Source: Catajapyx aquilonaris
Taxonomy: Eukaryota
Assembly: GCA_000934665.2 (NCBI GenBank)
Contig: JYFJ02002978.1
Span: forward strand, 1-47,907
DNA: 47,907 nt
Direction of reading: 5' to 3'
The position numbers and the translations under genes are program-made. Below are positions 822 to 39,440 of the stretch, piece after piece (position 1 is the stretch's first letter; the number at the start of each line of letters is the position of its first letter). Below the pieces are notes generated by a model. The model did not search any database. It saw nothing but the letters and a program-made list of their open reading frames with translations, and was not told where the DNA came from.

Positions 822-1910
822 CGATAATGCAGCTGTCCAAAGGCCTAGTATTATTCGAGAGCCCATCATGCAAGTTGGGTTTGTGTCGTTCTCAGAGAAT
901 CTTGGGTCGTCCGAAATCTCATCGTCCAGGGCGGATTGCAATTTGGTTTTTTCGTCGACGCTCATTGGTTGGTTTTGAAATACTGGCAGAACTTCCAGGA
1001 AGGATATGCAGGTGTCTATATCGGGTTTTCCATCCTCGGTCAACTGATAAAGCAAAGTATAATTAATTTCAAGAACAGTTCATTGCTACGATGATTTTTT
1101 TTTTTTTGGGGTTTTTTTTGGGGGGGGGGGGTCTGTTATGATGTTTTTTAAAACGGTGGCAACTCACCAAACCCAAGCGTTTGGCAATGCATCCATCTAA
1201 ACACTGAAAATATAAGAATAATACGTAGTGGTATGACCTTATTCGATCAGATGCTTATACAGGAAACCGGCTTTACTTTCTTGTCAGCCTCGTTCCCAAA
1301 ATCTTGATCATGCATCATTCTTCCCGTACAGTTGTAGGACTCTGCATTGGTGTCCTTCGTGATCCATTCCAGTTGACAAGGTAGCACCAGGTCCAGATCC
1401 CTCGCACACTGGTCGAGGCTCCTCAGAAAACCAGTGTGGCCACCTAGCAAGCATTGCTGAGCGACAAAAAATTCAGGAAAGGAACGGCAACAAATAAAAT
1501 ACAGTATATGCTGCTGAAGTCGAATCTTCTGCTATGCCTCACAGGAATCTAAGATATAACTATATTCTTTCATACGCTATATACCGGCATTGGAAGAAAT
1601 AATGCTGACTGGCTTCTAAAATGCCTCATTCGAGAAAAGGGGAAATACGCGTACGAGTACGAGGCCTGATTGTGAATAGAACATTCTCATACCTTGAATA
1701 CTGCAGGGTAATGCAGATCAATGCAGAGAGATTCTTCGTCATCAGTGAGTTCATCCTTAGCATCTTCTGGAACCTGGGTGTACGTGTGTACAATACACAA
1801 GTTATTAGAGAGCATTATTTCATAGTTGCGGAAATACTCGCCTGCGATTGACCCTGCTGGGCTCCAGAGAGGGCCAGAAGCGCAAGAAACACGACGTATG
1901 AAAGTTTCAT
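822..1910 (-). CDS. Odorant-binding-protein-like secreted protein, paralog A (3'-incomplete). Exons 1910-1842, 1773-1693, 1456-1277, 1203-1168, 1043-822; final exon not found
   Basis: Signal-peptide exon MKLSYVVFLALLALSGAQQGQSQ. All exon lengths are multiples of 3. Splice sites are GT-AG except a GC donor in intron 1. OBP-type motif KCLDGCIAKRLGLLTEDGKPD. Aligns exon by exon with the two neighbours. Confidence 0.8.
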
Positions 1911-1975
1911 CTCAGTGAACATCCTTTGCCAGCAGGTTTTGGGCTATTGATGTTGATGGCTGGCATGCGAATTGC

Positions 1976-1982
1976 TTTTATA
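1976..1982 (-). promoter_or_regulatory. TATA box of OBP-like paralog A
   Basis: TATAAAA on the - strand ~66 nt upstream of the ATG at 1910. The equivalent position in paralog B reads TATGAAA. Confidence 0.6.
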
Positions 1983-2018
1983 GGCCCTGAATGTGAGGTT
2001 TTTATGCTTCCTGCGTGA

Positions 2019-2085
2019 TTAGGTAAGCGCGTGGTCATCAGCTGGACACCTTGGCGTGACAGAAAACGTCATTTCCTTGCACCTT
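2019..2085 (-). promoter_or_regulatory. Conserved upstream motif block, OBP-like paralog A
   Basis: + strand TTAGGTAAG...TTGGCGTGACA...CGTCATTTCCTTGCACCTT, repeated at the same relative position upstream of paralogs B and C. Confidence 0.6.
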
Positions 2086-3379
2086 GGCCCATGGACTCAA
2101 TACAATTGACAGATTGTATTGTACAATCATGAACAGTGTACTTGCATTATGCTAACACTCACTAATATTACATGCCTGCTTTTCACTAGAACATTCTTGC
2201 ATGCGAACATCGCAACGGTGTGAAATAATGTGAATGTAATGTGCAATATAATATGTTTGTCTGAACCTGTCCGCATACTTACCGATGGAAAAGGAGTCTT
2301 GCTGTCTAAAAATCAGGGAAAAACATGAAAATCTAACTTGTGCAGGATAATAGTTTTGTTAATCGCACCAAACTGTTACGCTGCCGTTTGTATAGCTAAA
2401 CCGCACTGAGTCAGTCACTAAATCAAACATGACGTCGCAGAGAACCACTTGTTGTGACGGTTTGGTAAAAGACATTAGATAAAGGAGGATCGAGATGTAT
2501 AATAAGTAGATTACAAATGGTTAAAGCCACATAACAACCAGTTAAATAATAAGTAAAAATCTTCCCTCAGCAGTGGTGCACCCTTATGCAACAGGCCCTT
2601 CAGTTTTCAAATGTTTGTTTGAACAAGTTAGTGTTGATTTGGACGAGAAGTATACAGGTATTTAAACAATAATATCTGGACATAAATTTTATATAGTCGG
2701 CATACAAGTGAACTCAAAACGGCCAAGAATGGGACTTGGTGTGTTTCACTTGCATGCTGACGAAATATCAGGCCGGCGAGAATTTTGACGGACAAAATGT
2801 CTGCTGGATATTAACTGAACGAGATATCTTGGGACAAAAATATAGTTTGGAAGAAGTTCAGGTATGTAACCAGAGTGAACAAAATACTGTAGTATATACG
2901 TTTGGTTCGATTAAATGTACGGCACCAATCAAGCCAATAATTAGTATACTTATGAGCAGGTAACCATTCTCGATGGCATCATGCAGCGTTTCACTCATTG
3001 GCACATAGTGACAGAAACTTTTGCTCCATCAAAAATGTGTGCAGCACATTGCACATGTATGAGGTGTCTTTGTTATTTAATCGCTTCACAAAATGCAGAT
3101 TATAACATTTAAAAAATATATTTCTTCGCTTGAGAGATCATAATTATTATGCTAATGCTATGCACTGAAAATCTGGAGCGCTTTATTTTATTCACTTGCC
3201 AAGTCAATATTGGGACATGTGAATAATATTGCCCTTTATTAGTTTCAATGCATGAATGTGCCTGTATGCGTGTATTGAGTACAGTTCTAGTAAACTGTCA
3301 AAATAATATTGGTTATAAATAAGAGCAGATAGTAGAGGTGCATCAGCATTAGAATGGTGTTCCTTCAGTGCGAGATGAG

Positions 3380-4918
3380 TTAATCCGCATCCCATAGACT
3401 TGAAAATGGCGTCACGGACTCGTGAGCCCCACTCAGATTCTCTCTGCACACTCTCATTACGCATGTCTGCAGTGCTCTCTGTTGAAAATAGTTATTAGTT
3501 AGAACAGATAAAGAGTATTGACACCCACCTTATAATATTATGAAACTATTATTATACTGTATTATAATTTATTACTTGTTTTTGGAACCCACCAATCAGC
3601 TTGGGAGTATAGCATATATTGGTGGATCCAAGCACAACGAGCGTAAAACACAGGCAACGACAATGATAATTATCACAGTAATGTTACAGTATACTTACAT
3701 CGCGTACCACAGACCAAAGGCTAAGTGAAATTTGACGACCCATGAAGCAAGTTCGGGCTTGCTGGTTCTCGGAGAACTCTTCAGTCGAGGATTCCTTGTC
3801 CAGATAGGATTTCATTTCTGTTCTTTCTTCGGCACTTACTGGTTGGTCTAGAAACACCGGAAGACCATCTACGAAGGATACACAGCCGTCAAGATCAGGT
3901 GTCCCTTCCTCGGACAACTGAGGGGGAAAAAAGCATACAATTAATTGCAGGGAACAACAGCAACACTTTACTAAATCCTTATAAAATAAGCAGCTTAGTG
4001 TCATAGCAATATATTAGTCCCACAAGGTATTTCGGATCACCCTGTATTATGACAGCCTTCAGTGTCTCCGTTTCTGACCTGCTTGTCTACCTCTTCATGG
4101 TTACGAATGGAATATTTTGTCTCCTAAGTTGCTATACAAAGAGGGACTCTCTTACCAAACCAAGGTGTTTGGCGATGCATCCATCTAAGCACTGAAAAAT
4201 ACGAACAATACAGAGTTAGTGAAAAAATGATCTCACATACTTATAGCCTCTATATTATAATATTGAATAAGATGCTGAGAGGGAACTTTACTTTCTTGTC
4301 AGCCTCCTTCCACAAGTCTTCCTCGCCCTCTCTTGCTGTGCAGTTGTTGGAATCCACACTGGTGTCCTTTGTGATCCAGTCCAGCTGACAAGGCAGCACT
4401 AGGTCCAGCTCCTTCGCACATTCGTCAACGCTTCTCAGATAATCAGGGTGGCCACCTAGCAAGCATTGCTTAACGACAAAAAAATTTTGAAAATGAAAGT
4501 TACATAATAAAATGAAGCGACTTCATTAAGTATAATAAGCGCATTTTTTGAATGTTTTGCTGAGTTCATTTTTCACTTGACTGACACTTAATCTAAAATA
4601 TTGTAAATCAGAGAAAAGTGGGTCATCATTATATACGTAATATACCGTAAAGCTCATACCTTAAATACTGCAGGGTAATGCAGATCAACGCATAGAGATG
4701 CTTCTTCATCAGTGAGTCTATCCTTATCATTTTCTGGAGACTGTGTGTGTGCGTGTGCAAGGTAGAGAATTATTTCATTGCGGAAACAGGCCTATGCACA
4801 TTCCCTTTTCTATAGAGTTCAAGGCTATAGAGGTGGTATAAAAACTTGCCTGTGATTTGCCCAAATGGGCTCCAGAGAGGTTCAGCAGAGCAAGAGAGAC
4901 GGCGTACCAGAGCCTCAT
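3380..4918 (-). CDS. Odorant-binding-protein-like secreted protein, paralog B, 226 aa. Exons 4918-4850, 4740-4660, 4468-4292, 4191-4156, 3917-3699, 3478-3380
   Basis: Signal peptide MRLWYAVSLALLNLSGA. Six exons joined by phase-0 introns give an open frame ending RALQTCVMRVC...WDAD*. Motif KCLDGCIAKHLGLLSEEGTPD. AATAAA on the - strand near 3235-3240. Confidence 0.85.
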
Positions 4919-5030
4919 CTCAGTGCCACTGGTATTTTGGGCAATGCTGGATGTTGATGACTTCGCCCGAGAATATTGCTTTCATAGTATAGGCTCTCAC
5001 TATGTGAGGATTGCAGTTTCCTATACTCGA

Positions 5031-5085
5031 TTATGTAAGAGGGTGATCACGCATTGGCGTGACAAGCGTCACTTCCTTCCACCTT
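5031..5085 (-). promoter_or_regulatory. Conserved upstream motif block, OBP-like paralog B
   Basis: + strand TTATGTAAG...TTGGCGTGACA..CGTCACTTCCTTCCACCTT, matching the blocks upstream of A and C. Confidence 0.6.
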
Positions 5086-5481
5086 GACTCATTCACACTG
5101 TGCACAAAATGACGATAATTCTATACACTCATGGGCGTTGATGATTCTATAGAGTAGAACTAGTGACTTCAACAATAAAATACCAATTATTGCAAGCAAA
5201 AAGTCAGTTTTTGCGTTATCTGAGTCAATATTTTTGAGCAGTAACTATCCAGCAGCTCATTGTTGAGATGTGTCTAAATTACCAGTTGGCCACATAATCA
5301 ATGCGATGGCTTTTCAATGACCGGGTCATTTCGCTGTTTGCTAAAGAAAATTAAATAATTGTCGGTGAATTTTAAAAGCAATTATTTTTAATTATCGTAG
5401 TCAGTATAGACTTGTATATACATAACAAATAACATTACACGAACATTCCTAAGTTGTTATGCCCTGTCTTCAAATGTGATA

Positions 5482-6806
5482 TTAATTTACATTATCTCCA
5501 AAACCCCATGAACCTCTAAGGCCTTTTTCTTCATCCAGAATCTTGAACTTGGGACTTCTGAACTTGGGCTCGCATGCTCTCAAAACGCACGTTTCCAATC
5601 CGTTCTGTTAGAAAGGATAATGCATATATTATACAGTAGAAGTAAACTCTTGCTGTGTCAAATGCCGTAGCAGGAAATACGACAGTGAGACATTTTCAAA
5701 TATGTAATATCCAGGCGGAGATATATAGGTCGGTAATTTTGTGTGGGAGAGAAATATTATTTTTGCCTTTACCTCGTACTCTGCATTCCAAAGGCATCGA
5801 ATGATTTGAGAGCCCAACTTGCATTCTGGATCACTGATCTCTGAGGAATTATCAAATGAATAATCATTTTCTATGCAATTTATCAGTTCTTCTCGTATTT
5901 TATCGCTTAATGGTCGGTCTCGAAACATGGGCACTTCCTCCAGGAAGGAGATGCAGGCCTCGGTGTTTAGTGTCCCATCATCAGTTATCTGCATAAAACC
6001 AGGTAAATTAAATTTATTGCAGAACAATCTCTGAGTGCCGATTAATACAGCAGACATCCTTGTCGCGCAGCTGAGAAAACGCCGAAGCAAGTTATCCGCA
6101 CCATGAATTAGAAAAGTAATAATGCAGCATCTTTTGTATTTAAAAAATGAGAGTAACTCACCAAATTCATCCGTTTGGCCGTGCAGGCGTCAAAACACTG
6201 AAAGAATGAGGAGATAGTACATTGTTGCAGTGCAGTGAGAGAAGTATATTCACAGGGTCAATAATATTACTTGTAATTATTGCGGATAGTGTTGGCGACT
6301 TACTTTCTCCCTCGCCTGATTCCATCTATTGTATTCGGAGTCTGATTGTCCAGTGCAGTTGTGGTAATCTGTGTCGGCTTCTTCCCTGATCCATTCCAGA
6401 GAGCAAGGCAGATCCAGGGCCAGCTGCTGCGCACACTGGTCAGCGCTTCTCAGATATCCCTGGTTCCAATCTGTTATGCAGTTCTGAAGGACCAGTGTTT
6501 TCATGCCCATGAATTCATCACACACTATATAAAAGACTGGAGATCATACCTTATAAATAGCAGGGTAGAAGAGATCGAAGCACTCCATTATTTCTTCATC
6601 GGACAAGTCATAGTTTTCCTCTTCTGGCTGCATGTGTGTCAAACCAGTGCGAAAAGAAGCATTGTTAATAATGGCACGACCTTCCTATATCCATATCAGA
6701 GTTTGAATGTTTCATATTGCACTATATAGCGACTTGCCTGTGATTTGCAGAATTCAGCTCCAAACAAGGCAAACGCCATCACTATCCATTTCGACTCGAT
6801 CAACAT
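5482..6806 (-). CDS. Odorant-binding-protein-like secreted protein, paralog C, 233 aa. Exons 6806-6738, 6627-6550, 6483-6304, 6197-6162, 5988-5773, 5604-5482
   Basis: Hydrophobic N-terminus MLIESKWIVMAFALFGAEFCKSQ. Full OBP-type six-Cys core C1-x43-C2-x3-C3-x44-C4-x17-C5-x8-C6, including KCFDACTAKRMNLITDDGTLN and CKLGSQIIRC. Seven extra Cys. All introns phase 0. Confidence 0.85.
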
Positions 6807-6889: not shown

Positions 6890-6959
6890 TTAGGTAAGAG
6901 CACGCGATCAGCGCACGAAAAGGCCTTGGTTTGACAATAGACGCCACTTCCTTCCACCT
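6890..6959 (-). promoter_or_regulatory. Conserved upstream motif block, OBP-like paralog C
   Basis: + strand TTAGGTAAG...TTGGTTTGACA...CGCCACTTCCTTCCACCT, matching the blocks upstream of A and B. Confidence 0.55.
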
Positions 6960-9900
6960 CGTCATCTGAGCTGACCCTGATTCTCTTTCCTGTTCAGCAC
7001 ATCACTATAGATTGCACTTACACTATCAAAGACATGCAAGTGGCTGTTCGGCTCTAATCATTTGCTTAGACCGCGCAGCTAATGACAACATAATATACGT
7101 TATATTGTGACGTATGTCTGCCCTTTTTTTATAAAAAAATGGAGTGCAGGACGACGATAAGGTTATAAGTTTAAGAACACGCTGACCTTGTTACAATTTT
7201 ATAACGCCTCGTTTCATAATTTTTTATACAGCATATACATCATTCTGATACCTCCTACCTGTCTGAACACTCATACTGTAGTAAGAAAGATGAAGCACCA
7301 TTGCAAATCTGCGCTCTTTTATTCTGTTAACAATAAAAAGTCACTGTTGTATGTCTTCCGGCAGGTGAAAAAGGTGAAAAAGTCGCGGCTTTGCAGACAA
7401 AAAAGTAGGGTAGGCCCCCAAAAATACCTAAGCCCCAAAAAAACAGGTTTAGTGGAATCCAGAAGCTCCATTCACGTTTTTCCCCTCGTGTATTTTTTTG
7501 AGGAAGTCGCAGTCGGTGGGAAAAATAGCCGGTTGAGGTTAAATTAGGTGCGATTTGTTACCTGCTGGACAGGTGTTGGGGTCAAGTCCTCCCCCATCCA
7601 GCTATATACCTTCCCCACAACCCTCAAAAAAAGAGGAAAGGAAAGAAGAAGAAAAAAATGGCCCGGCTGCCGATGCCTTCTTTCCAATGAAAAGTAATCG
7701 GCACAAAAAGGTCAAAAACATGTCACGGTGACGAGATGGATCACTTCCTCACTTTTGAAGCCCAGGACTCTATGGAAAACTCATTCAAGGATACGCTTCA
7801 AAAATGGGGAAGGAATTTTGCTCACGCCTATAACACTCCGGACATTTGCTGTTCGTTTTCTCAAAGGTGCTGGAAAGGCTGTGGCTCTAACCATCACACC
7901 TTCGTGTTTAATATTTAATGACCATACATTGGACGGTGTTATGCAATAATGACAACAGTTTTGAGAAAATGGGATTTGAATCTGAATGTCACACCTGTTG
8001 AATTAATTCGGCGCCATTTTCGGTGGTAGAAGTATGCAGATTTCGCCAGATTGATTTTAACTGAATCAAGTACATAAAGTTGCCCACTTGTGCCCGGGGA
8101 TTGTTCCAGTTTGTGCCTATTGTTTGCGACCACAGCACAGCCTTGTGTATACAATTTTTTACGAAAATGCATCGGTGTCGCCCCCATACTTTGGGTGGGC
8201 ATCGTTTACCTCAAGGCCTGAGAGACCTTCGTGAGTTTTAATCCCATCCAGAGGTCCGTCTCTCTTCTCTCTTCTTTTTTTTCCTCTTCTCTTTTTCACT
8301 CCCTGGGTTGTTTTGGAAGAAAAGCCCATCCCCCTTTTGGAGGCGAACCATCTGGAAAATAATTCTGCAAAAGTGGACTGGAAAGCAAAGAGCGGGCAAA
8401 GGAACGCAACCCAAGCCCACGAAAAACAGGCTGTTTACCCCGCAGAGACACCATTTTGAGCCCTCAAGGACTCCCTCAAAAACCAAAAGCCCTCCAGGGC
8501 TGGTTGCTCTCTCTCTCTCTCTCAAAAAGACCAAGCCCACCGAGAGTTGTTTTCGAGATTGTCTCCTTTGCACACAAAAGATGTATAGGCTTGAGACCAC
8601 TTCCTCCGCAGATATCAGCTCTCCTCAAAAAAAAAACTGCCAGGCATGTAGGAAACATTAGCTACAAATTTGGAAATATATTTCTCGAAATATGCACTGT
8701 ACATCCAAAGTGTGATGTGGCAACAAACACTGCCAACGACCTTTTTAAACGAAATGAGAGTGTGTCTGAAAAACTTTTGTGGTCGAAAATTTTAACCTGA
8801 TTTATAGTTTTATCTTAATTCTGCATCCCCACAGCTGCTGCTTGATAGAATCGTTTTGGTGAGAGAGTGTCCAAAAAGGCGAGGACAGGACAGATTTGGT
8901 CTTGCCCAAGTCTTGTGATTGACAACCCGGGGGCACCCGAATTTTCCGGGTGGAAAGTGAAGGAAGGGAAAGGACTTCCTTCACGCCCAAATTTTCCACT
9001 CCCTTCTCGACCCACCTACGTGTCAATTACCTCCAAAGAAGCGCAGGAAAACCCACAACCACTACTGCGGTGACACCCTTTGGACCATAATGTTGTTACA
9101 TCCAGCAACCTGTTTTTGTTTTTTTAATTGAAAAAAAGCGTTGCCAGAACTTTCAGAGAAATGTGACCAAAAAAAAGTTGAGTGGCAAAGCTAGTAATCG
9201 GATGACACGTTTGGAGTGTATCATGGACTGCGGGGTCCGGACAAAAAAAGGTGGTAATCCGGAGGCAGCGTGCCAGAAATAGCTTATCCGGTGTCCTTCC
9301 CCATTTCCCCCCCAAATTCACAAGTGGGGGTCCTCCTTCCCCATCATCCATCCATCGGAATCGAAGGGACAAAAATCTCTCCCCAAAATCCGGCTGCTGC
9401 ACGCGCTTGCTTTTTGTGACCGGTCTAAAACTCTGTCCTCCGATGTCCCCTATGGTTGGCCCCCTCCGACCATCGTTTTGCAAAGAAACCCTAATCCGAT
9501 GGCTCAAAAAGGAGAGGATGCGGATTCGGTCGTTTTTAGGTCTCCAAAATTCCTGGCGGCGACTCCTGAACAAAAAGGTTTTCCAGACCCTGTGGGGCCT
9601 ATGCACATGCAGGAGGGGGGGGGGGGGGGGGGANGAGCACGAGCAGGAGATTAGCATATGTTTGATTTCACGCGTGTGCTTTCGGCCCTCCATTCATTGT
9701 TAGGGGGGGGATCTCACTTTTTGTCAACAGACAAAAATATTCATCACTTTTTGCCTTGGTGATGATGTTTGGTCGTTTTACATTGGGGCATATAGTCTGG
9801 TCAGTGGAGAGCATGGATAGTTACATACTTGTGATAAACCTGAAACATCATTTACCTATATATACTGGCCATTTTTCTTCTTCTTTATATAGGCCTGCAT

Positions 9901-28927: not shown

Positions 28928-31684
28928 ATGCTTATTATGACAACGCAGTGTCTCACCATGGTCCCACCACCGCAGTGTCTCAAGTGAGTCTCACTTTTTA
29001 CAGATCAGATGTGAACATCCTGACATGAAGGCAACCCTCATTACAAGGGTGTACACATGGTGGTGAAATCTGCAGGATGTTCACTGTAACACCATCATAA
29101 GTAATTGGCATTGCAATAGTTACTCCCCATCCTAAATGCATCATAAAAACTATAGAAAACCATGAATTTATGGCAGTAAGCCATGAGTGTGCACAGTATC
29201 ACTCTCAGTAGTCCAGAAGTGGGTTAGATAGCCCAAACATTATTATGAACTATTGCGGTATGAGGAAATAATGACGGATTTTGTTTTTCTCTCACAGCAA
29301 CTCTCCTCCTCCTACAACTTCAGCGAGCCTGAATTATGAGGGTCACATGAGCGTGATGACCTCTGGCCTGGAGGAAACCATGAAGGCTGCCCTGGAGCTG
29401 GAGAGGACCCTCCAGAGGGAGTCTCTTCGTGTGCCAACCCCTCCAGATGAGCAGCCCCAGGTCAACCACACTCAACTGCAACCTAAAGAGGAGGAGGAAG
29501 ATGCTGAGATGTCGCCGAAGGAGGACACGGAAGGGGATGATCAGGACAAGGCCTCACAAGGGGACAGTCTGGACAGGGATGAGTCATCTGGGTTTGAGGA
29601 GGTGGAAATGGACTCCCATACTGATCTTCTTGGTGACATGGACCCGCTCAAGAAGCTTCAGGTTGTCTTTGGGTTGGAGGCAGTTGCCAATGGACATCCA
29701 GGACTTATGTTCCAGCAAGGTAACTATGAAGATATCCTGCAACTGTCCCAATGAACATTTTTGAGATACTGGGTCATGTGTGACCATCATGAGCAGCATT
29801 GGTTAACATGTCTTTTATACCTTTTCCAGACCATCTGAAGTGCTCTCAGTGCGAGTACACTTGCCGCCATGAAGCTCACTTGCAGGCGCACATGCAAGAT
29901 GCGCACCAGATGATGCACAGCGGAGAGGACCATCATGACATTGATGTGGCCATACGCTTACCAAAGGTCAACTCTCAGGGAAAGGTCAGTTCATTATAAT
30001 CTGAAGATTCACATGTAAGCAGCATGTCGTACTCTATAGCGTATGCAACTGTTCAATAATAAAAGACAGCAGCAAAGTCACTTCCTATTTGCATTAATGA
30101 CACAGATTTTTTAACAGCTGTAATTTTAAAATCATGATAAGTACAGGCTTCACTTGTTTATGAACAAGTGTTCACGATACTATGTACTGTACTGTAACAT
30201 CACTAATTAATTTCTCTCCCTTCAGATGAAGATGTTCAAGTGTAAGCAGTGCACTTACGTGGCGGTGACTAAGCTTGACTTCTGGTCCCACTCTCGCGTC
30301 CACATAAGAAAGGAGAAGCAGCTGCAGTGTCCGCAGTGTCCCTTCGTGACAGAGTACAAGCACCACCTGGAGTACCACCTGCGGAATCACAATGGGTCCA
30401 AACCCTTCAAGTGCTCCAAGTGCAACTACTCATGTGTCAACAAATCCATGCTCAATTCACATATGAAGTCACATTCCAACGTATACCAATACAGGTGGGT
30501 CTGAGTGCCGCTGTGAAATTCAGTAATGTACATATGGAATAGTTGCAACTAAGTTTTTGTCTGAAAAAAACAATCATTGGTCATTAGTAAGCACATGATG
30601 CTCAGAAAATTCTGCAAATTTGACAATTACATAAAGATATTGAACAAATAAGAATTTCTAAACTCTTGATGAGTTCAGAATTATTGGTGAATTGTGTAGG
30701 AACTGTGCCTTTTGCATTCACATGCTGTATTGAAAATCTAAATTTTTCCAAAAATTTCATAATTACCATTTTTTTTCTCGCAGGTGTGCCAACTGCTCAT
30801 ATGCCACCAAGTACTGCCACAGCCTGAAGATCCACCTGCGGAAGTATGACCACAAGCCAGACATGGTCCTCAATTCCGACGGAACCCCCAACCCCCTCCC
30901 AGTCATAGATGTGTATGGAACCAGGCGTGGGCCAAAGACCAAGAAGCAGGATGGCAGTCACAAGGAGCCCCGTGCCATGCCGTCAATGCCTCCCCAGCAA
31001 TGCCAGCCCATGAATCTGCTTCCGTTTACAGCTCCAGGCCCATTCCCATTCCTGTTCCCAACAATGGATCAGCCAATGCAGCTGTTTCCACCCATGTTTC
31101 AACCGCAGGTCCCTCTTGATCTGCGGAAAGACATGCCTGAAATGCCAAAGATGTTGGGACAGGATATACCTGAGATCCCCAAATCCATTCAAAATGTCCC
31201 TGACCTTCCAAAGTCACTGCGAGATGTGCCCCACCTTTCCCAGCCCCTTGCGCCAACCCCTGAGGCTACTCCGGAATCTGCTGCGGAGACTGCCACTGAG
31301 TCATCTTCCGCACCAAACCGGAACAGGCGCAAGGGTAAGGCATTCAAGTTGGAGCGAATTGCTCAGCGACTGCAAGGTGGTGAAGCCCCGAAGGAAGTAC
31401 CAAAGGAGGAAGCAAAGCCAGCAACTTCTGATTCTGAGGAGGATGCCCCAGCCCTAGAACAAGCTGTGGCCAAGAAGGCACCATCAACATCACCACCTGC
31501 AACTGAGCCCACCCATGATCTCAACTGTCCCTACTGCTTCATTACCTTTAAAGATTTGATTTTGTACTCGATGCACATGGCATACCATTGCTTCAAGGAT
31601 CCATTCTGCTGCAATCGTTGCGGAGTCCGAACCTTGGATCGGTTTGAATTCTTCGCTCACATTGCCCATGCATCGCATCATTGA
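28928..31684 (+). CDS. hb: Hunchback C2H2 zinc-finger transcription factor, ~600 aa. Exons 28928-28983 (exon acceptor at 28904; start codon uncertain), 29298-29719, 29830-29984, 30226-30494, 30784-31684
   Basis: Diagnostic central fingers [69 protein letters not shown] and [26 protein letters not shown]-box [20 protein letters not shown]. Basic box [10 protein letters not shown]. Two C-terminal fingers. GT-AG junctions with matching phases sum to 1803 nt. Confidence 0.97.
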
Positions 31685-34735: not shown

Positions 34736-35779
34736 TCAAAATAGGACTAGATCATCACCTTGGCTGCCTTTCTGTTCCTGCTCTATGTAATTCAAAATGT
34801 CTGCAGAAGACATAGTGTCGGCATCCACCTTGGCCTTGCTGCTCCTCGGGAGAGGAACTGGACTCTTCTGCTTCTCCTTTGTGCCATTTGTCGTTTCTGG
34901 TCCAAAGACGGTCCTCTCTGACAACTTGGGCCTCGGCAATAGTTGCGGCTTTGGCGGCAGAGATGGTTTGGCAGCTGGTCTTGCTGGACTTGCCTCTTCA
35001 GGGGATGCCTTGGCAGTATCCGCCTCATCTTCAACAATGGCATCAACATCTTCGGTGGGTTCGTCAAGTTCCAGTCCTTCATCCAAATCAAGCCTTCCAA
35101 ACAGACTAGGAGTAGACGAGTTTTCACCAAATAAGTCACCAGCCTCTGGTTTGGATGCGGAGAGTTTTTCAAACAAGCTCGGTGCTGGCAGGCTTGCATC
35201 CAGGCTCACCGCATCGCACTGAGGTACAAGTTTCCCACCCATAAATTTTGACAGCAACAGCGACTTTTCAATGCCATTCAAGGCCGAGAGCATGGAAAAA
35301 GACTGTTGCAAGTAAGACTGTCTTGCTTCGGAGGCACTGCTTCCGGGCTTGAATCCGGGAAACTCTTTCCGAATCTTCTTGAACAGATCCTCGCATTCCC
35401 AGAGCGTCTTGGAAACACGGAGGTGCCCGCAGGTCACTTGGTATTCTGTGGTCGTCCCACCTAAGGGCACTTCAACATCTCGAGGCTGGCCGACTTCAAA
35501 GCGGAAGGGACTGGAAAATATAAATGGTGACAATCAGTGAATAGCTCATATTGTAGCACAATGGGTGGACACAGGCTTGTGAATTTACCACTATTCTATG
35601 TAGGAACGTACTACACAAGGAGGCTCAGTTGATTACAATAAACATGTGAGACACCACGTACTGCGGCAAGCGCACTAACATGTGATGCGTTTAGTGGAGG
35701 CCACCTGAGCCTGCAGAATTTGATGGACCAACCCAAGGCAATTGACACAGCAGGGCATATTGCCTCACCTTTCCTCCAT
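34736..35779 (-). CDS. HS1BP3: HCLS1-binding protein 3-like (N-terminal PX domain, acidic and Pro-rich C-terminus). Exons 35779-35769 (putative start, ATG GAG GAA AG) and 35510-34736
   Basis: PX-like N-terminus (EYQVT...VSKT..E.E.LF.KI...F...R..YL....LL.KFMG). Pro-rich KPSLPPKP. C-terminal MSSADILNYIEQ...LVLF resembles the HS1BP3 'DIL.YI...LF' tail. A phase-2 donor AAG|GTGAGG matches the phase-2 acceptor TTTTCCAG|T. Confidence 0.75.

Positions 35780-39366: not shown

Positions 39367-39369
<3 letters not shown>

Positions 39370-39440
<71 letters not shown>
39370..39440. repeat. (AAT)n microsatellite, ~23 units, followed by (ACTT)n
   Basis: Directly visible. Confidence 0.95.

Follow-up and report, generated by a model that had tools for sequence, protein, structure and literature searches.

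A stretch of 47,907 nt from Catajapyx aquilonaris (contig JYFJ02002978.1, assembly GCA_000934665.2), referred to here as the window, was studied for three neighbouring paralogous genes situated on the minus strand at positions 822–6806. In an initial annotation of this DNA, they were described as three six-exon paralogs encoding long, cysteine-rich proteins with the fold of odorant-binding proteins (OBPs). The genes were designated A (822–1910), B (2489–4918, including the 3′ untranslated region), and C (5461–6806), and their exon boundaries were derived from the sequence. Three minus-strand paralogs were indeed found, with six exons in each of B and C, but A showed only five exons within the window. 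Spliced translation gave products of 226 aa for B and 233 aa for C, in agreement with the lengths previously claimed. Reading of the boundaries showed that every intron of A, B, and C is in phase 0.

Splicing was followed in contigs from X5, a public run of the same organism belonging to a study other than that which supplied the DNA. The kind of this run is not on record; the skipping of introns by its contigs was the sole reason for regarding it as transcript-like. The predicted introns skipped exactly by these contigs were 5 of 5 in C, introns 1–5 in B, and introns 3 and 4 in A; among them were the GC-AG introns of B and C and, in B, intron 5 with its 220 nt (3478→3699). None of the intron-skipping joints was seen in the DNA run X1. 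Presence of the joints in X5 and their absence from X1 indicate transcription and splicing of the genes in the way that the initial annotation had proposed.

All exons described below are on the minus strand. Exon 1 of gene A (1842–1910) contains the start codon and the predicted signal peptide in 23 codons and ends at a GC donor; it was placed by its boundaries and phase, and an X5 joint over intron 1 of A was looked for and not seen. Exon 2 (1693–1773), recognized by homology to B and C, encodes an acidic N-terminal part with the first conserved cysteine. Exon 3 (1277–1456; 60 codons) has four conserved cysteines and is connected by the X5 joint 1203→1277 to exon 4 (1168–1203), whose 12 codons include C-x3-C and which is also bounded by the joint 1043→1168. 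Exon 5 (822–1043) has 74 codons and is followed by the conserved donor GT at 821–820; the X5 contig covers only 830–1043 of it.

Gene B begins with exon 1 (4850–4918; start codon and predicted signal peptide), which is separated from exon 2 (4660–4740) by a GC-AG intron crossed by the X5 joint 4740→4850 (CT..GC on the plus strand). The joint 4468→4660 connects exon 2 with exon 3 (4292–4468; 59 codons), which was placed by X5 joints and paralog alignment. Exon 4 (4156–4191; C-x3-C) is bounded by the joints 3917→4156 and 4191→4292, and exon 5 (3699–3917; 73 codons) by 3478→3699 and 3917→4156. Exon 6 (2489–3478) is coding at 3380–3478 (32 codons plus stop, with C-x4-C). One X5 contig spans 2489–3478 and is joined to 3699, and the 3′ untranslated region of B thus extends at least to 2489.

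In gene C, exon 1 (6738–6806) carries the start codon, the predicted signal peptide, and Cys20, and its GC-AG intron is crossed by the X5 joint 6627→6738 (CT..GC). Exon 2 (6550–6627), exon 3 (6304–6483; 60 codons), exon 4 (6162–6197; C-x3-C), and exon 5 (5773–5988; 72 codons) were likewise delimited by X5 joints. Exon 5 encodes C4, C5, and C6 in the numbering of classic OBP cysteines, including a C-x8-C, and is the source of the subthreshold Pfam match described below. Exon 6 (5461–5604) is coding at 5482–5604 (40 codons plus stop, with C-x4-C), is attached by the joint 5604→5773, and is covered by the contig to 5461.

Intron 1 lies directly behind the 23-codon exon 1 in all three genes and has a GC-AG boundary. 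The donor context, with the exon end marked by a slash, is CAG/GCAAGT in B and C and CAG/GCGAGT in A (GC at 1840–1841, 4848–4849, and 6736–6737 for A, B, and C, minus strand). Since the GC donor is used in the B and C contigs and is common to all three genes, this non-canonical donor has been kept through duplications with synonymous divergence (dS) of up to about 1.

Exon 6 of A was not found in 1–821, either by three-frame reading of 1–830 or by tblastn against the window; it may lie beyond the window start or have been lost. Just downstream of A, where the last exon is expected, a very high-copy repeat is located at about 500–570, with an X1 contig depth of approximately 13,700 in the 500–720 bin, and many loose contig ends fall at 567–570. 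It was considered whether A could be a variant that is truncated or anchored in the membrane, with intron 5 retained or with the last exon lost to the downstream repeat. Read-through of A from 822 remains open to a stop at 729 and would add a 24-residue hydrophobic tail, nothing resembling exon 6 occurs within 1–821, and the repeat with its extreme depth lies in the appropriate place. However, the donor GT of A at 821–820 is at the exact position of the donors used in B and C, and the counterpart of the tail region in B is inside an intron that is removed in X5 contigs. X5 cover of A ends at 830, and the depth of 2.29 in the 721–941 bin is what the cover of 830–941 alone would give, so no read-through of A was seen. 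The absent exon may also simply sit beyond the window start. Such a variant of A is therefore regarded as very unlikely. The intron 5 starts of A (750–821) and B (3620–3698) are similar to each other on the minus strand, and their translation gives a hydrophobic stretch and two cysteines. A coding membrane anchor made from this stretch was ruled out for B by the X5 splice from 3699 to 3478.

The reading frames of A, B, and C are intact. A and B are 63% identical, and C is 36–40% identical to either. For the paralog pairs, dS was 0.55–1.09 and the ratio of nonsynonymous to synonymous divergence (dN/dS) was 0.44–0.56, values that indicate old duplicates evolving under relaxed, though still purifying, selection. 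Three-way alignment of the upstream regions revealed a conserved block at 2051–2087 for A (about 140–180 nt before the start codon), 5054–5087 for B, and 6926–6960 for C, all on the minus strand. This block of about 35 nt reads, on the sense strand, AGGTG-S-AAGGAA-R-TG-R-CG, a short spacer, and TGTCA..CCAA. Towards the start codons, the genes also share the block CTTAC-M-TAA and, close to a TATA-like site, an AAGCAAT box. The conserved blocks are probably a shared promoter or enhancer element. If the three genes were decaying, functionless duplicates, the disappearance of two otherwise conserved cysteines from A and B and the missing last exon of A would be readily explained. Nevertheless, all three genes have open frames, canonical splice sites, and spliced X5 contigs, dN/dS is below 1 at dS of up to 1.09, and the putative promoter block is kept in each of them, which makes decay exceedingly improbable.

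Over exons 1–2 and intron 1 of C (6547–6783), a second X1 contig was present at a depth of 9.8, compared with 27.3. It is set apart by 7 substitutions and by 4 small deletions; the 4 coding changes comprise 2 silent and 2 protein-changing ones (E18D and E25G). This contig looks like a second allele.

By inspection, the N-termini of A, B, and C are hydrophobic and are predicted to be signal peptides, with an S-G-A site at residues 15–17 in A and B. The parts following exon 1 are acidic, with isoelectric points of 4.25–4.42. Cysteines number 9 in the five exons of A, 11 in B, and 14 in C when Cys20 is included. Nine cysteine positions are common to the three proteins, Cys159 and Cys186 occur only in C, and the C-x4-C of exon 6 is present in B and C. 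The additional conserved cysteines, this C-x4-C among them, were found as had been described. The initial annotation had also suggested an odd number of cysteines in the mature proteins. This holds for B, with 11, whereas C would have 13 only if Cys20 were lost together with its signal peptide; with cleavage of C after residue 17, as the S-G-A site of A and B would suggest, Cys20 would be kept and the number would be 14, an even one. The free thiol or covalent dimer proposed in the initial annotation on the basis of an odd count would, in C, thus depend on where the signal peptide is cut.

Two motifs had been named as OBP hallmarks. The first, C-x3-C-x2-K-x2-[GN]-L-x3-[DE]-G, was confirmed across exons 4 and 5 in 3 of 3 genes and was absent from all 5000 shuffles made per protein. 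The second, C-x8-C, was found in C (Cys177–Cys186), but the second position is occupied by Gly in A and by Ser in B. The cysteine aligned to Cys159 of C is absent from A and B as well, so that these two lack both C4 and C6. The OBP fold is compact, with six helices and three interlocked disulfides, and in classic OBPs C4 and C6 form a disulfide pair. The joint loss of the two in A and B fits OBP disulfide logic.

Profile, sequence, and structure searches were performed with single-exon pieces of A, B, and C. Seven exon pieces were scanned against 24,736 Pfam models at E values of up to 10, and PBP_GOBP (PF01395) was the sole relevant family to surface. It matched exon 5 of C with an E value of 0.029 and a score of 14.9 bits, over positions 58–112 of a profile of 113; the cut-off of this family is 22 bits. 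By arithmetic from the E value, and with the family having been named beforehand, the one-family p value of the match is approximately 1e-6. The match starts exactly at the end of the 12-residue exon 4 with its C-x3-C, which is the position expected for the segment after C3.

A model of the exon 5 piece of C, produced with AlphaFold2, was helical, with four helices and a predicted local distance difference test score (pLDDT) of 74. When this model was submitted to Foldseek, 8 of the 45 listed rows were OBP-type structures, including PpSP15 at rank 1, LUSH five times, and BmorPBP twice, with query TM-scores (TMq) of about 0.4. PpSP15 has an OBP-like fold. In a second examination, AgamOBP48, PpSP15, and PdSP15a were aligned over 64–69 residues to the chain after C3. 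Gene structure pointed in the same direction: a phase-0 intron just after the signal peptide is reported as general for OBP genes in a silkworm study (PMC2722677), and intron 1 of A, B, and C is in phase 0 just behind the predicted signal peptide.

Several results weigh against an OBP relationship. The PBP_GOBP score of 14.9 is below the 22-bit cut-off and was obtained with only 1 of 3 exon 5 pieces; the exon 5 pieces of A and B and all exon 3 pieces gave no PBP_GOBP match in Pfam at E values of up to 10, and no piece from the N-terminal half had a relevant Pfam match. Searching 1.84 billion representatives with a HMMER profile of exon 5 returned only one spurious repeat protein, and a word-indexed search of longer proteins with an exon 3 profile found nothing among 381 candidates. 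Three sequence searches of PDB listed no OBP, all rows having E values of at least 0.24. In Foldseek, all rows for exon 5 had E values above 2 and probabilities of at most 0.18. The model of the exon 3 fragment had a pLDDT of 48.7 and was unreliable. In the ESM Atlas, the best score for the exon 5 piece was 0.88, with unrelated clusters and recognition below a useful level, and the exon 3 piece had no usable match. The strict published cysteine formulas, namely the general and Plus-C formulas of Zhou (PMC2808328) and the classic formula of Hemiptera (PMC5958050), gave 0 of 3 matches when applied as regular expressions.

The initial annotation had suggested that the triplet may be an undescribed OBP subfamily. 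No relatives were found in these piecewise searches, and the organism's own proteins were also missing from the libraries searched. The chance rows from PDB, with E values of at least 0.24, were a taste receptor, a calcium channel, Mediator, and an ephrin receptor, and were rejected. Rfam returned nothing. Members of the bicycle gene family carry CYC motifs and are divided into numerous small exons. This family, known from aphids (PMC9168663), was dropped as an identity for the triplet, no CYC motif being present in A, B, or C.

The earlier claim of an OBP fold has the subthreshold PBP_GOBP match and the first motif on its side, while the fold searches with fragments gave no significant match. 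The same observations bear on an alternative, in which the triplet is not homologous to OBPs and forms a lineage-specific family whose secreted helical proteins are acidic and rich in cysteine, for example products of salivary, seminal, or other glands, and in which the C-x3-C...G-L...D-G motif and the cysteine spacing arose by convergence or chance. None of the exon pieces matched an OBP significantly in sequence or fold, the Pfam match was subthreshold and limited to one paralog, dN/dS of 0.44–0.56 is high, as in fast-evolving secreted effectors, and approximately 40% of the protein (N-terminal extension and tail) matches nothing. Against this alternative, which we consider rather unlikely, the sole family to surface was the one predicted beforehand, and at the right profile positions; the motif occurred in 0 of 15,000 shuffles; C4 and C6 were lost together, in keeping with OBP disulfide logic; and the weak Foldseek rows were enriched in OBP-type structures (8 of the 45 listed). 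We favour, with reasonable but not strong confidence, the reading that A, B, and C form a tandem cluster within the PBP_GOBP superfamily that is lineage-restricted and evolves fast.

Comparison with known OBP classes was made on this assumption. Classic OBPs (PF01395; LUSH and the Bombyx mori PBP) resemble A, B, and C in having a signal peptide, an acidic mature protein, and C-x3-C followed by a G-L...D-G turn, as well as a phase-0 intron after the signal peptide, arrangement in a tandem cluster, and a helical C-terminal half. In C, the C3-C4-C5-x8-C6 layout is also in the range of the silkworm "typical" formula, C1-X25-68-C2-X3-C3-X31-46-C4-X8-29-C5-X8-C6 (PMC2722677). As a regular expression, this formula matches C, and also 70 of 5000 shuffles. 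In contrast to the triplet, classic OBPs are about 110–200 aa long (PMC5913285, PMC5623057), compared with precursors of 226–233 aa for B and C, and have 6 cysteines instead of 11–14; the triplet is further distinguished by an extension at the N-terminus, about 55 residues long and containing extra cysteines, by its C-x4-C tail, and by the absence of C4 and C6 from A and B.

Plus-C OBPs, such as Anopheles gambiae OBP48 (4ij7), are similar to the triplet in being longer than classic OBPs and in that their conserved cysteines exceed six, additional ones being present upstream of C2 and after C6. They have Pro after C6, where C has Leu-Trp, and they differ from the triplet in its extra cysteine 18 residues after C3 and in its C-terminal pair being C-x4-C. 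The strict Plus-C formula is C1-X8-41-C2-X3-C3-X39-47-C4-X17-29-C4a-X9-C5-X8-C6-X9-11-C6a (PMC2808328). In a looser sense, the name Plus-C is applied to any OBP in which the conserved cysteines number more than six (PMC2722677, PMC5623057, PMC5913285), the extras lying in the C1–C2 interval and also after C6 (PMC2722677, PMC5623057). In this loose sense, C would be a Plus-C OBP, but only if its OBP core has been assigned correctly. Minus-C OBPs are like A and B in that one cysteine pair of the classic six is gone; however, they are described as lacking C2 and C5 (PMC2722677), whereas A and B keep C-x3-C and C5 and are without C4 and C6.

The initial annotation had stated that the proteins fit neither the classic nor the Plus-C class. 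This is right in the strict sense, because none of the strict formulas matches, Pro is absent after C6, and the losses differ from those of Minus-C OBPs; it does not extend to the silkworm "typical" formula or to the loose definition of Plus-C, both of which C fits. Because several Plus-C types and "atypical" forms are already recognized (PMC2722677, PMC5623057, PMC5913285), an unusual cysteine layout is not surprising in the OBP family. The atypical or dimer OBPs of mosquitoes are described as having a second OBP domain or a long C-terminus and 9–10 cysteines (PMC8067015, PMC3134979). This description does not apply to A, B, and C, each of which has one C-x3-C core; the tail behind the C6 position comprises 32–47 residues, and the cysteines number 11–14. 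The OBP-like proteins of chelicerates and myriapods, compared here by their description, resemble the triplet in being very divergent and in being linked to OBPs by weak profile matches, cysteine pattern, and modelling (PMC5381604). They are reported there from those groups and not from insects, while the host here groups with insects. None of them was returned by the exon 5 profile search of the 1.84 billion representatives.

The position of the host was judged from hunchback, which is located at 29275–31681 on the plus strand. Its zinc-finger exon lies at 30211–30501; the last exon, at 30734–31681, comprises 316 codons and encodes the pair of C-terminal fingers; an acidic open reading frame (ORF) at 29275–29751 may be an upstream exon. 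The best matches of the last exon were from insects (Hemiptera, a stick insect, and beetles), with 39–41% identity over 96% of the exon. In a quick maximum-likelihood tree of 32 named sequences chosen from 237 matches, made while a careful search was unfinished, the window fell on a long branch inside insects, not within the clades of Hemiptera and Holometabola that were sampled, with support of 90–91 (not starred). On this tree, the host was judged to be an insect.

No further copy of the triplet was found when A, B, and C were compared with the window by tblastn. Among the other ORFs of at least 70 aa beyond position 7000, 150 of 185 were scanned with Pfam, the remaining 35 including all 30 beyond 41983; no OBP-like gene was detected in those scanned, and only the hunchback zinc fingers were matched. 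An open frame of 265 codons at 34739–35533 (minus strand), rich in Ser, Pro, and Ala in its second half, matched no Pfam family at an E value of 0.01 and probably represents one exon of a gene that is still uncharacterised. At 39369–39440, a perfect (TAA)24 microsatellite was observed, which is the source of an apparent poly-Leu ORF on the minus strand. Single N bases are present at 9634 and 10763, long G/C and T homopolymer runs occur in introns and intergenic DNA, and contigs of both X1 and X5 break at 1083–1137. The assembly is likely to be weak at these places.

If A, B, and C belong to the OBP superfamily, the product of each gene would start with a signal peptide, followed by an acidic extension in which extra cysteines are spread over about 55 residues, and would continue with a helical core resembling that of OBPs and a short C-terminal tail with C-x4-C. 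The core would carry C-x3-C on its third helix and, in C, also C4, C5, and C6. Following secretion, the proteins would fold into a compact helical domain stapled by disulfides and would probably serve, in whichever tissue they are made, to carry or buffer small hydrophobic ligands in an extracellular fluid. By analogy to Plus-C OBPs, the extra disulfides may add rigidity, and the C4–C6 bridge would have been given up by A and B.

A more far-reaching reading is that the triplet represents an undescribed, lineage-restricted OBP clade, in which the core is clamped by an N-terminal extension with two disulfides and by a C-x4-C hairpin, and in which A and B have traded C4–C6 for an unpaired cysteine that could allow covalent dimers or adducts. 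We regard this as possible but doubtful. OBP families are described as undergoing fast birth-and-death evolution with repeated, independent changes of cysteine pattern (PMC3134979). Most likely, the triplet is a lineage-specific variant of the OBP superfamily with an unusual cysteine layout, and no new kind of protein or system. If the OBP assignment is true, insect OBPs would be more varied in their cysteine layouts than has been known, the new elements being loss of C4–C6 instead of C2–C5, an extra cysteine shortly after C3, and the C-x4-C tail. It would also mean that OBP genes can drift out of the reach of sequence searches, which would bear on counts of chemosensory genes in poorly sampled insect orders.

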